From Eledone cirrhosa (taxonomy: Eukaryota), in contig CAXHJY010001286.1 of the NCBI GenBank assembly GCA_964016885.1, forward strand, positions 1 to 64,000: a DNA stretch of 64,000 nt, given 5' to 3'. Each line of letters opens with the position of its first letter. Positions within the stretch are counted from its first letter, which is position 1. Made by a program: the position numbers and the translations under genes. Shown here piece after piece: positions 2,113-30,866 of this stretch. Below the pieces are notes generated by a model that did no database searches, was not told where the DNA came from, and was given only the letters and a program-made list of their open reading frames with translations.

Positions 2113-2243
2113 GAACTGATAACATGAAGTTCACATGAAGATATGTCACTATCTTTACACCAATTATTATATTTTATCTGACGAAAGCGTACTAAAATAT
2201 TAGAACCCCTGAAATACGTATAATAAAATAATTATGGTTTTAT
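2113..2243 (+). mobile_element. Short non-coding HHR-bearing repeat (family A), putative Penelope-like pLTR or retrozyme fragment
   Basis: Nearly identical over about 130 bp to the reverse complement of 30793-30924, and contains the HHR at 2170-2230. Confidence 0.65.
2170..2230 (+). ncRNA. Minimal type I hammerhead ribozyme motif, family A (copy 1)
   Basis: TATTTTAT(2170-77) - CTGACGA(2178-84) - imperfect stem II - GAAA(2211-14) - palindromic TACGTA - TA - ATAAAATA(2223-30), which is the exact reverse complement of the 5' stem I strand. Predicted cleavage after 2222. Confidence 0.75.
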
Positions 2244-2521
2244 AAAGATATTTTCCATTTATTGAGTGCTTCTAATTTCTCCCGAATGAAACAGTTCTAC
2301 TCCAGTCGAAGCCATTTCTATGTTGTATATTAAATATTTATATTCTGCTATGTGTTGAGTACCTTACTTACTGTGGTAACCCACGATTGAACACGGGATA
2401 AATAAATAAACATATATATATATATATATATATATATATATATATATATATAGTTGAACAAATAAAATAAAATAAACACAAACTTTTACAAGGATGATGT
2501 TTGGGAGGAAGTGGAGGAAGG

Positions 2522-2555
2522 TTCTACTTTTCGGACGGAAGTCGTTCGTCAGGAA
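2522..2555 (-). ncRNA. Degenerate minimal hammerhead motif (family F)
   Basis: Minus strand reads TTC-CTGACGA-ACGACTTCCGTCC-GAAA-AG-TA-GAA. Both core boxes are intact, stem II is GAC/GTC, and stem I is only 3 bp. Confidence 0.5.
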
Positions 2556-3529
2556 ATGGAGAGTTCAGAAGGGAAGAGAACAGATAGATAGATATATACA
2601 TATATGTGTGTAGAGAGACATGAAATTTCCATTTAAATCAGATATAGTCGATATAAGCATGATGTGAAATGTAAGGCATTGGTTTTCCTATGAAACTACA
2701 CGGTCTTACTCGATAATTTCAATAAAAAGTTGAACTAGTTACTTGCAGAGAAACTGAAGTAAATCAAGGAATGATGAAGATATTATATAGAGAAGAGTAG
2801 AGAGAAGCAGGGCATGGGGGATATCGAGGAAGAAATTGTCTTTTGATTTCAAAACCTTTTCAAAACAGTAAAAATCACTTGCGGCTTCAACTTTGATATG
2901 ATGTCGGAACGAAAACGTAAAACGAATACAGAAAATATTGGTAATAATATTATCGTTTTATCTTCAGCGATAGCGGCATATTTGCCGCAGAAAGTCGCGT
3001 ATGATCATATAGCCTCCAGTTCTCTAAATGGGACAATGAACTCACGTCCGCTTTTCTAAAGTACTTACTATACCGGTTACTACTTTAATGTTAGTAGATA
3101 TCTATGAACATTAAACCCTAGCAACCTCTCCTTTCTGTCTTAATCCTTTTCACTTTAAATGTCTTCTTCTTCCTCTCCTTTCTTATTCTTACTACCTCCG
3201 TTTCTTCTTCCTCATCTTCTTTTATTTCACCCGCCACCTTATTTCCTTTCTATCTTCAGCAATCTTTTCAACTTCAAGAGAAATACGACGAAATATTTTC
3301 TTTATAAAGGATAAATCGTTATATGAAATTATGAAGAGGGAGTGGGAGTAAGAGTGAAAGGAAGAGACAGATAGAAAGAGATAATGATTGAATAAAAGAG
3401 GAAAGAGAAGTTGAGGTGGGAGGAGGTGAGGGTGATGGCCGAGGTATTCCGTTAATGAGTGAAAGAGGAGGAATACTTGCTCCATATCTATGACCTAACG
3501 ATTGATAAACTGTGTAGAAATATGCTATA

Positions 3530-26347: not shown

Positions 26348-27660
26348 TATATGTATATATATATATATATATATTATATATTTTTCTATATATATATATA
26401 TATATTATATATGTTTCTATATATTTATATATATATATATATATATATATATGTTTCTATATATTTATATATATATATATATATATATATTATATATGTT
26501 TCTATATATTTATATATATATATATATATATATATTATATATGTTTCTATATATTTATATATATATATATATATATATATATTATATAATTTTCTATATA
26601 TTTATATATATTTTTCTATATATATATATATATATATATATATTTATATATATATTATATATTTTTCTATATATATATATATATAGATATATATATATAT
26701 ATATATATATATATATTTTATATGATTTTCTATATATTTATATATATATTATATATTTTTCGATATATATATATATATATATATATATATTTTATATGAT
26801 TTTCTATATATTTATATATATATATATATATATATATATATTTTATATAATTTTCTATATATATATATATATTTATATATATATATATATATATTTTATA
26901 TAATTTTCTATATATTTATATATATATATATATTATATAATTTTCTATATATTTATATATATATATATATATATTATATAATTTTCTATATATTTATATA
27001 TATATATATATATTATATAATTTTCTATATATTTATATATATATATATATATTATATAATTTTCTATATATTTATATATATATATATATATATAATTTTC
27101 TATATATTTATATATATATTATATAATTTTATATATATTTATATATATATATATTTTATATAATTTTCTATATATTTATATATATATATATTTTATATAA
27201 TTTTCTATATATTTATATATATATATATTTTATATAATTTTCTATATATTTATATATATATATATTTTATATAATTTTCTATATATTTATATATATATAT
27301 ATATTTTATATAATTTTCTATATATTTATATATATATTTTATATAATTTTATATATATTTATATATTTATATATATATTTTATATAATTTACTATATATT
27401 TATATATTTATATATATATTTTATATAATTTTCTATCTATTTATATATTTATATATATATTTTATATAATTTTCTATATATTTATATATTTATATATATA
27501 TTTTATATAATTTTCTATATATTTATATATTTATATATTTATATATATATTTTATATAATTTTCTATATATTTATATATTTATTTTATATAATTTTCTAT
27601 ATATTTATATATTTATATATATATTTTATATAATTTTCTATATATTTATATATATATAAA
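26348..27660. repeat. AT minisatellite (TATATAATTTTCTATATATTTATATA-type units)
   Basis: Read directly from the sequence. Confidence 0.9.
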
Positions 27661-30600
27661 TATTTATGAACAATTTACAGAATATATGTGAAATGTATAT
27701 ATAAATATTTTATATATACATGCACATTTATATACGTAAATAAAATCTATGTAAACACATAAACCATTTTAACATTTATTTGTATATATTTGTATATATA
27801 TATATGCATGTATGAAAATCTCTATGTATGCATTTATGTATGTGCCTGTGTTTTTAGGTATGTGTATGTATGAATTTATAAAATAATTTCAGCTTTTCCA
27901 TGATTTTATATTTTTCCTTGAATATAGGAGAATGCGTGACATACTGATATTGCAATGTATCTATTGTGAAATGTGTTCTCATATATATATATATATATAT
28001 AGGGTTAAGGTTAGGGTTACATATGTTCGTGTATGTGTATATATATATATATATATAATGTGCGTGTGTGCCAATATATACCTATATTTCTGTGCTGACG
28101 GCGCATGTGTGTTAGTATGCTCCGATATTCAGGTAATCAGTAAATAGAATAGATTCATGTACCCTTGATATCATATTCCTCTCATAAATCGAATCTAGAT
28201 TTCTACGCCACTCAACATTATTATATGTAGTATTATTATTAATATTACTATTATTATTTTTATTACGATTATTATTAATATTATTATTATCGCTATTGGT
28301 GTTGTTGTTGTTATCATTAACATTATTACTTTTATTATTGTATCTATTATTGTTATTGTTATTGGTTTTCAAATTATGAAGAAAAAAGCTAATAATGGTG
28401 GAGGGAAATGTAACTTCGAAAACAAATTAATTTTTCTTTTTTGTTTGAAAAATAAATGGAAGAAAGGAACTGGTAAAATATATATTATTTAATGAGAGAA
28501 TCCATGGAGAAATTATTTAATATTATTGGAGAGAATGGAGGAATATATATTTTATACAAGTGCCCATAAAACATACTTCCATCGTAAAATATACTTGAAA
28601 TCTCTCTCTCTCTGTCTCTCATATATATATATACACTTTCGTATATATTTATATGTATACGAACATGTATATATATATGTATTAATAAATTCGCGAATAC
28701 ATTTATATGTATACGATCTTATGTATACACACACACACACACATATATATATATATATATATATATATACACATACACACATACATGCATATATGTTGTA
28801 GATAGATGAATATAAAACATACAAAGTATTTCTAGCTGATCTAAGCAAAATATTTAATCATTGAGAGTGCACAATTCTGCGACTGTTGGTTGCATTACAT
28901 TAAATCTATGTGAATTTCTGAATTAAAGCAACGGGAGATATACACCCCAGATGTACCACAAAAAGGAAATATGAAACTATATATATATATAGTTGAAGAG
29001 ATGGAGAGATAATTTAGTGGAAAATACACTTTAATTACTTTAATTTATTTTCATTATCGCAACTGGTTTGGAAATTTAAATAATCTTAAGAATACCACAG
29101 AAAACTATATCCAGAAATAAAATAACCTCTCAAGTTTTCCCTTTTCTTCAATATATCGGGAACACCTCAGGCTACTTCCGTTCAAATAACGAAAATATAT
29201 TTATTAAAAAATACTTTCTATTGTTATGTTCTCCTGAGTTATTTTTCCTTGTTTGCTCCTATAAAAATATACAAATATATATAGATATATATAAATAGAT
29301 ATAAATATATACAAATATACACAAATATGTATAAATATATATATACGATAATAGCTCGAAAAGTTGTATAACCTTCGAATAAAAACAGACAAGAAACGAA
29401 AGTATCATCTTTACAACGCAAGTCACCGCATGTACATTATTTAAACTGTGTGTGTGTGTGTGTGTGTGTGTGTTCAGTAAGCAGACTCTCTCTCTCTCTC
29501 TCTATATATATATATATATATATATATAGATAGAGAGAAGGAAGGGAAGGAATAGAGATTTGTATATAAGTGTATGCGTATGTACACACCCATCCACACA
29601 TATATATATATATATATATATTTATATATATATATATATATATATTATGTATATATAAGCCCTTAGAACAAATTCCACCATACCCCCTGTCGAGGAAAGT
29701 AATAAGGTTTCCCCCAATAATATAATATTTCATAAAGAGAACTTAATTACAATTTCAGTGCCAAAGTAGTGTCCTCTCACAATTATCTCTATTATAGTAA
29801 GAACATGTCTTGTATATGTTTACTCTATCTCCTATCATTTTACATAACACCCTCACATGTAAATTATCTAACATACAGATGATGCTCGAGAATACATGGC
29901 ACTGTGTGAATACACATATATATATATATATATATTCGAAATAACTTTATATATATATATATATATATATATACACACATACATATATGTGTGTGTGTGT
30001 GTATATATATGTCTATACATGTATATATATATATATATATGTGCACTCACATATATATATATATATATATATATATATATATGTGTGTGTGTGTGTACAT
30101 GAATGCATATATTCTTTACATGCAATTCAAATTACTCTGTTACATATGAATTCGTATTGAATTATGCATATCTATCTACATATATATATATGTGTGTGTA
30201 TATATATGTGTATATATATATGTGTGTATATATATATATATATATATATATATATGTGTGTATATATATATATATATATATATATATATATATATAAACA
30301 CATGTATATATATATAAACACATGTATATATATATGTGTTTATTCCTCACTCTGTAGTATATGTGTGTATATCTGTTTTTCACCCTAAATACATACATTG
30401 TCGTGGAAGCCATTAAATGAGACAGTAGATGGAATAAGACCTGGAATCTATTGCCAATATGCTCTTTACTAAATACACAACAGCGCTAGTTCTCTTATTT
30501 GTGGCTATCATGATCATATCCGAATACTGTAACACGGCCAAATGAATACAAATACTGACAACAACAACTACAACAGCTACAACAAGAACAGTAATAAGAC

Positions 30601-30805
30601 GTACAATAACAGCAATAAGGACTATTACACAAAACCATGAAATTTTACCATATTACGAAATACAGAATGAGTTATCTGCTGTATGTGGAAGGTTTTCCAA
30701 TTCTACCTTTTGTCTTTTAACTTGTAACTAATTAATAATTGTTGTTTGCAGCAGGTAAACTTTATGGAAGAATCTATACACAGTATATATATATAAAACC
30801 ATATT

Positions 30806-30866
30806 TATTTTATTATACGCATTTCAAAGGTACTAATATTTAAGTACGCTTTCGTCAGATAAAATA
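30806..30866 (-). ncRNA. Minimal type I hammerhead ribozyme motif, family A (copy 5)
   Basis: Minus strand reads TATTTTAT-CTGACGA-AAGCGTACTTAAATATTAGTACCTTT-GAAA-TGCGTA-TA-ATAAAATA, with stem II GTACT/AGTAC. Confidence 0.75.

Follow-up and report, generated by a model that had tools for sequence, protein, structure and literature searches.

The closest described relatives of the repeat reported here are the hammerhead variants of Penelope-like elements (PLEs) that have a small palindromic helix III, known from Drosophila willistoni, the kuruma shrimp, Aedes and rotifers (Cervera and De la Peña 2014, PMC4209133). PLE hammerheads have a long helix II, a palindromic 15.2-16.2 region and many variable subfamilies per genome; they lie mostly solo, with some opposite-strand pairs 100-700 bp apart, and they cleave poorly in vitro (PMC4209133). 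PLE insertions, in the available parts of a further account, show heavy 5' truncation, an inverted 5'-truncated copy beside the 5' end and a 30-40 bp tail at either end (PMC8557442). Here I examine a 64,000-nt stretch of Eledone cirrhosa DNA (contig CAXHJY010001286.1, positions 1 to 64,000; hereafter the window), in which a preliminary description, made from the letters alone, had noted five copies of one motif (family A). All five were located where it had placed them. In sequence they are type I hammerheads, each lying at the fixed 3' end of a repeat present in high copy number; they probably represent the terminal-repeat hammerheads of PLEs, left as short 5'-truncated and fold-back copies. 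PLE hammerheads with a palindromic helix III are a kind already in print (PMC4209133). The present copies would add one more genome to the known spread of PLE hammerheads and would explain several short palindromes of the window as retroelement insertion scars.

Five type I hammerhead motifs

Each motif consists, in order, of an 8-nt stem I strand, CUGANGA, stem II, GAAA, a linker of 4-6 nt, UA and the partner strand of stem I (Table 1). Helix III is replaced by the self-complementary linker, and the cut site is AUA. The core (C3 U4 G5 A6 N7 G8 A9 and G12 A13 A14 A15.1) is kept in four of the five copies; the description had credited all five with CTGAYGA and GAAA, which fails for A4, where G12 is A and the second box reads AAAA. 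An 8-bp all A-U stem I and AUA (U16.1, H17) occur in 5/5 copies, and the stem I sequence is identical in all of them. The predicted cut sites after 2222 and 6257 are correct in hammerhead numbering.

The motifs exceed what chance would give. A loose core pattern matched 11 times in the window, compared with a mean of 0.35 in 100 shuffles. The full type I descriptor, with no core mismatch, found A2, A3 and A5 and gave 0 matches in each of 30 shuffles; allowing one mismatch added A4, at 0-2 matches per shuffle. A1 fails the full descriptor because two of its stem II pairs are broken (it reads GTACT/AGAAC); its predicted hammerhead fold energy is +1.8 kcal/mol, and that of A2 is -9.8 kcal/mol. 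A covariance model built from the five copies found no sixth copy in the window at E < 0.1.

The linker is self-complementary in four of five copies, with predicted duplex energies of -6.5 (A1), +0.6 (A2), -2.2 (A3) and -6.5 kcal/mol (A5).

Table 1. Family A motifs and the insertions that hold them (window positions).
Feature	Position	Strand	Description
A1	2170..2230	+	core intact; stem II decayed (2/9 pairs broken, tip unpaired); linker a perfect palindrome; cut predicted after 2222
A2	6201..6265	+	a lineage of its own; no damage in core or stem II; linker of 4 nt, for which the predicted dimer helix is weak; cut predicted after 6257
A3	10923..10988	-	third lineage; core intact; one bulged G in stem II; predicted cut after 10931
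A4	11041..11106	+	on the arm that mirrors A3; A in place of G12 and 15.2-16.2 unpaired; predicted inactive; predicted cut after 11098
A5	30806..30866	-	no damage in core or stem II; self-complementary linker that includes G·U; cut predicted after 30814
Repeat copy holding A1	2112..2263	+	58 nt of upstream family sequence in common with A5; 3' tail word 2248-2260
Insertion around A2	6087..6327	+	63-nt 3' end (6265-6327) inverted at the 5' side (6087-6149), 90% complementary
A3/A4 fold-back insertion	10897..11135		head-to-head arms 10919-11012 and 11017-11110, 96%; 15-bp direct repeats 10897-10911 and 11121-11135
Repeat copy holding A5	30783..30936	-	sharp 3' end at ~30783-30786 beside short (TA)n; similarity fades 5'-ward to ~30936

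The motifs lie in AT-rich, animal-type, microsatellite-rich DNA. An Rfam scan of the window returned 0 families at gathering score, and a Pfam scan covering 150 of the 200 listed open frames yielded none that reached the cut-off; its six weak sub-threshold matches include neither a reverse transcriptase (RT) nor a GIY-YIG domain, and no host gene was recognised among the scanned frames. C/D small nucleolar RNA identity was rejected, with scores of 12-17 bits for cut-offs of 36-70 and with stems I and II left unexplained; all Rfam E-value matches were to microsatellite-driven microRNA or weak C/D-box models. Outside the window, a pattern scan gave 2 viral-contig and 10 metagenome-contig loci, none of which (0/12) has a paired inner stem II together with a palindromic linker, and all were dropped as chance. 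The best of them scored E 0.005 with the family A model, a value for a locus preselected by pattern. Tighter patterns gave 0 matches in prokaryote genomes and 0 in viral contigs.

Stem II and the pattern of conservation

Stem II was said to vary freely around a conserved core and stem I, and three stems were quoted for it. It begins at the core as an 8-9 bp helix of three pairs, a C·C mismatch at position 4 and then five or six pairs; the C·C is present in 5/5 copies, which contradicts free variation. The quoted stems cover only the outer half of this helix, and two of the three, GTACT/AGTAC and GTACTG/CAGTAC, carry the same GTAC/GTAC and so show no variation. The former is present in A5 but not in A1, where it is the broken stem given above.

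Nor are the five real motifs five independent copies. A single fold-back supplies both A3 and A4, one on each of its arms (94 nt, 4 differences), and the copies holding A1 and A5 are 93% alike over 140 nt (2112-2251 and 30924-30785; 10 differences); thus the window holds four insertions from three lineages.

In the five-row alignment, 93% of stem II cells are paired, and five of nine stem II pairs are altered on both sides, a number equalled or exceeded in 2/500 shuffles and standing at 0-1 in slid controls. This count, from five related rows of three lineages with a structure drawn from the same rows, is support and not a significance test. Stem I gives no covariation support because it is invariant in the window. 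Between A2, A3 and A5, pairwise identity is 36/36 at the 12 core positions and 1/3 at N7, 8/18 in inner stem II, 23/36 in outer stem II, 14/34 in loop II, 8/30 in the 5' flank and 23/45 in the 3' flank. The 5' flanks are perhaps non-homologous, because copies truncate there. An unchanged core beside a varying N7, loop and flank, together with the two-sided pair changes, supports the view that selection on RNA structure acted in the source elements, and to this extent the earlier suggestion of selection on RNA function finds support.

To look beyond the window, contig and read sets were aligned to 30640-30960 (321 nt) at 80% likeness. One set (X1) consists of contigs from the same organism and two (X5 and X6) of restriction-site-associated DNA (RAD) reads; a further set (X4) from another organism (organism B) gave 13 pieces, 11 of them below 90% alike, and was excluded. 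The RAD shares are dominated by one subfamily, all of whose reads begin at a single stem II site, likely the restriction site, and because of this dominance family-wide statements are based on X1 shares. Of 79 variant rows over these 321 nt, 40 are listed, and 15 of these fall within the motif. N7 is variable among them (25% of X1 depth), and no listed row concerns any of the 12 remaining core positions. At stem II position 3, where A5 has G·U, 96% of X1 depth gives G-C. The RAD reads commonly show U to C at 30843 and also A to G at the partner base 30834 (unphased; 59% and 82% in X5). Two further subfamilies can be read by eye in loose-end lines, one with AUACCA/UGGUAU pairing (6 contigs) and one with a 9-bp outer stem (RAD reads), and both keep the C·C. 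Most of the family has UAUGUA as its linker, and roughly a third has UAUAUA (99%, 91% and 33% of X1 depth at three sites); the majority form, too, is self-complementary.

The repeat and its likely origin

In X1, 1120 contigs aligned to the A5 region. Summed depth is 5.6 in the unique flank and 3.7e5 to 9.5e5 over 30783-30826, and it falls 5'-ward beyond 30826 through 6.1e4, 2-3e4, 1.4e4, 8.5e3 and 4.3e3 to 843 at 30926-30936. Divergence of stem II accounts for part of the first drop, at 30827. A fixed sharp 3' end with stepwise 5' loss is seen in X1, X5 and X6 alike, and the 3'-terminal 40 nt are the most shared part across the family in X1. Summed contig depth is not copy number; from this depth and the four insertions in 64 kb, I infer roughly 10^4 to 10^5 family copies. 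Twelve contigs run upstream past 30933 at 0.65 agreement, and the upstream sequence is readable for 30 letters.

The window copies are only 100-250 nt long. Two of the four insertions have a fold-back structure and none is a direct tandem. The predicted A3/A4 hairpin reaches -134 and -138 kcal/mol on the two strands, and the 15-bp perfect direct repeat that bounds it is the tail word of the family. The same word occurs at the A1 and A4 3' ends, on the far side of the A3/A4 unit and in X1 loose ends past the 3' limit; the shared length is 15-30 nt, and A5 lacks the word. As an aside, the two 15-bp repeats may represent a tail added on each side, or else a target duplication that arose on insertion into an older copy. 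Opposite-strand joints in the aligned sets connect 30810-30871, 30847-30928 and 30867-30924 inside the element and 30786-30786 at its 3' end, evidence of fold-backs in other copies, and one 59-nt partial tandem joint occurs in 6 and 14 reads, with no partial tandem in the window. A1 and A5 have a nearly identical 5' limit; a short inverted repeat was also observed near it in the shared upstream part of both (2108-2147 and 30889-30927).

Family A agrees with the palindromic-helix-III variants of PLEs in its type I topology, full core, long stem II and palindromic linker that needs a dimer, and in its U-rich 5' and AU-rich 3' flanks, variable subfamilies (three lineages in the window and more in loose ends) and copies that are mostly solo or on opposite strands. 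Furthermore, in the supplement to that work, of which the available text has lost its column layout, the PLE-linked D. willistoni and shrimp rows appear to have A-U at 10.1-11.1 and A17, as in family A, and the shrimp row also appears to lack the extra base (PMC4209133). Family A differs in its invariant 8-bp all A-U stem I, where most rows in the available part of the supplement have 4-5 bp, and in its fixed C·C at stem II position 4, which was not seen in the 44 rows of supplement part 2 (PMC4209133). The insertions likewise resemble those of PLEs in heavy 5' truncation, an inverted 5'-truncated copy, (TA)n-adjacent ends and, possibly, an optional tail, as far as the available parts of two accounts describe them (Craig et al. 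2021, PMC8557442; Frangieh et al. 2024, PMC11167929). Unlike those elements, the window contains neither an RT plus GIY-YIG frame, among the 150 frames scanned, nor a tandem of two pseudo-long terminal repeats around an open reading frame (pLTR-ORF-pLTR), and no clade is assigned. In octopus, a 2026 repeat annotation reports a PLE expansion, and the accessible portion of its main text mentions no ribozyme or hammerhead (PMC13282606).

Several points weigh against the PLE assignment. No RT plus GIY-YIG frame, a defining feature of PLEs, is linked to the repeat (0/150 scanned of the 200 listed window frames), so that the PLE link is an inference. The consensus of the strict minimal hammerhead ribozyme (min-HHR: CUGANGAH, G...C, GAAAN, palindrome, NUH; PMC4209133 Fig. 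S3) is shared in the core boxes, the palindromic 15.2-16.2 region, NUH and flank composition, and the family departs from it at two points: there is no extra base after A9, and a purine-U pair stands at 10.1-11.1 (A-U in 4/5 copies, G·U in 1/5) instead of G-C. In addition, the linker is 4-6 nt. The register without an extra base between 9 and 10.1 pairs in all lineages, and it is the one in which stem II position 3 gives the G-C of 96% of X1 depth. Because the extra base after A9 and G10.1-C11.1 are both absent, family A is not filed under strict min-HHR. The commonest linker gives a weak predicted duplex, at -2.2 kcal/mol. In Rfam E-value scans of A5 and A2 to E 10, no hammerhead model was among the matches; an Rfam match is not defining for PLE variants, which were found by descriptor. 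Finally, a lizard PLE could insert in vitro without cleavage, and none of the RNA reads had its end at the site, in the accessible part of that study (PMC11167929).

The mechanism that I propose draws on the PLE papers and on passages of a review (PMC6765202), and what the data themselves provide is the motif and its position at the 3' end of the family. Two motifs on one tandem transcript of a source element would pair via the linker and build helix III; the dimer would cut at AUA, processing the precursor RNA; and reverse transcription starting a few tens of nucleotides downstream would place a copy of the motif in almost every insertion, even the shortest. The window copies are predicted to be decaying passengers, because the A4 core is broken, A1 stem II is broken, A3 is caught in a 94-bp hairpin and there is no direct tandem; selection would have acted on the source elements.

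What else could place a hammerhead at the end of a high-copy repeat? It is quite unlikely that the family is a non-LTR retrozyme (LTR, long terminal repeat) or a unit like a short interspersed nuclear element (SINE), short, hammerhead-bearing and non-autonomous, amplified via circular RNA, borrowing the enzymes of PLEs or LINEs (long interspersed nuclear elements) and having no coding parent. Such a unit would account for the missing coding frame and the very high copy number, and the nearly shared 5' limit of A1 and A5 and the partial tandem joint in a few reads suit it; retrozymes and PLE ends are also reported to be related, in the available part of a preprint (bioRxiv 10.64898/2026.07.22.740005). 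Metazoan non-LTR retrozymes share with family A a dimer-requiring type I hammerhead, a non-coding nature and high copy number. However, as far as the accessible text describes them, they are head-to-tail units of ~170-400 nt with canonical hammerheads whose stems measure 6 and 4 bp (Cervera and De la Peña 2020, PMC7229834), whereas direct tandems number 0/4 here, fold-backs 2/4, and the stem sizes are not canonical. Moreover, depth fades 5'-ward in many steps with no single unit boundary, and no unit-length tandem joint is among those listed over the 321 nt covered. I consider it very unlikely that the fold persists because the element's RT-endonuclease uses it for recognition or priming, with cleavage slow or incidental. 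That idea would make sense of a stem I invariant in sequence beyond what pairing needs, of the most shared 3' terminus, of poor cleavage by PLE hammerheads in vitro (PMC4209133) and of insertion that did not need cleavage in the lizard experiments, in the part accessible (PMC11167929). It does not explain why, in the window lineages and the listed read rows, 12 catalytic positions are fixed and N7 varies, the pattern that catalysis demands, or why the linker remains self-complementary.

That the host keeps these genomic copies as working ribozymes in its transcripts is scarcely credible: A2, A3 and A5 do pass the full descriptor, but the damage in core, stem II and linker is single-sided, no direct tandem partner exists, A3 and A4 mask each other, and none of the 150 scanned frames was recognised as a host gene. 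The preliminary description also suggested that the overlap of stem I with an AAUAAA couples ribozyme cleavage to polyadenylation. AAUAAA does overlap the cut site in 5/5 copies (it lies just downstream in a second hammerhead family at 34595), a second hexamer sits 4 nt past the cut in A3, A4 and A5 only (3/5 copies, 2 insertions), and the mammalian Clec2 hammerhead removes a poly(A) signal according to the review passages available (PMC6765202). The hexamer, however, starts at position 17 and the cut falls after its first A, splitting AAUAAA in 5/5 copies; 144 hexamers in 35.6 kb of unmasked window on both strands, ~2 per kb per strand, form the background; AAUGAA, in which G·U keeps stem I and the signal is spoiled, makes up 32% of X1 depth (40 contigs); and none of the window copies has poly(A) at its end. 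Poly(A) polymerase does not accept a 2',3'-cyclic phosphate end as substrate, and at most cleavage and polyadenylation would exclude each other. The coupling is thus not supported, and I regard it as highly improbable. A PLE origin of the family remains the likely explanation.

A possible subtype and other repeats

In the published literature that was searched, covered as listings apart from the papers cited here, no description of family A or of a stem II C·C was seen; Lünse et al. 2016/2017, on dimer-cleaving PLE hammerhead variants, lie outside that search and may already describe the C·C. The mismatch occurs in all family A lineages, in the two read-derived subfamilies and in the second hammerhead family of the window, in company with U11.1, a 6-nt palindrome, AUA and an A-U-rich 8-bp stem I. 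One might propose an undescribed PLE hammerhead subtype whose mismatch forms a tertiary contact by docking onto stem I and gives efficient cleavage of the dimer, although I think this rather unlikely. If the C·C were such a contact it would matter more, as it is still a puzzle why PLE hammerheads have low activity in vitro. The many natural variants offer a ready covariation and activity library.

The second family is carried by a 1.3-kb element (33416-34706) with 136-nt inverted ends (99%), each holding one copy, and an interior without a Pfam match. Its copy at 34595-34647 on the + strand is intact, and the inverted copy has C3 to U. Its sequence is unrelated to that of family A and its architecture is the same, with U11.1, the position-4 C·C of stem II, the 6-nt palindrome and AUA. 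The family A model ranks 34595-34647 sixth, at E 0.11, level with a microsatellite decoy. Diverged relatives (74-77%) of the end of this element and of the neighbouring 33257-33338 lie at 57008-57084 and 57178-57260. Lone hammerhead-like core words that fail the descriptor occur at 2525-2552 (-), 51796-51823 (-), 56900-56940 (+) and 23540-23580 (+), and may be decayed ends of other families or chance.

A third dispersed family, 89-96% alike over ~140 nt, occurs at 6309-6447, 10155-10359, 14014-14215, 33206-33252, 35319-35458 and 58435-58653. Its copies are set in (TA)n, often with fold-back arms, and one abuts the 3' end of A2. GAAAC, a hairpin whose loop is palindromic, and GUC are present in this family, and together they may be the 3' half of another hammerhead. 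Lastly, several copies of a SINE-like repeat, which I take to be typical of octopus genomes, were seen by eye at 7920-8110, 13080-13245, 24930-25105, 31430-31550 and 52360-52450.

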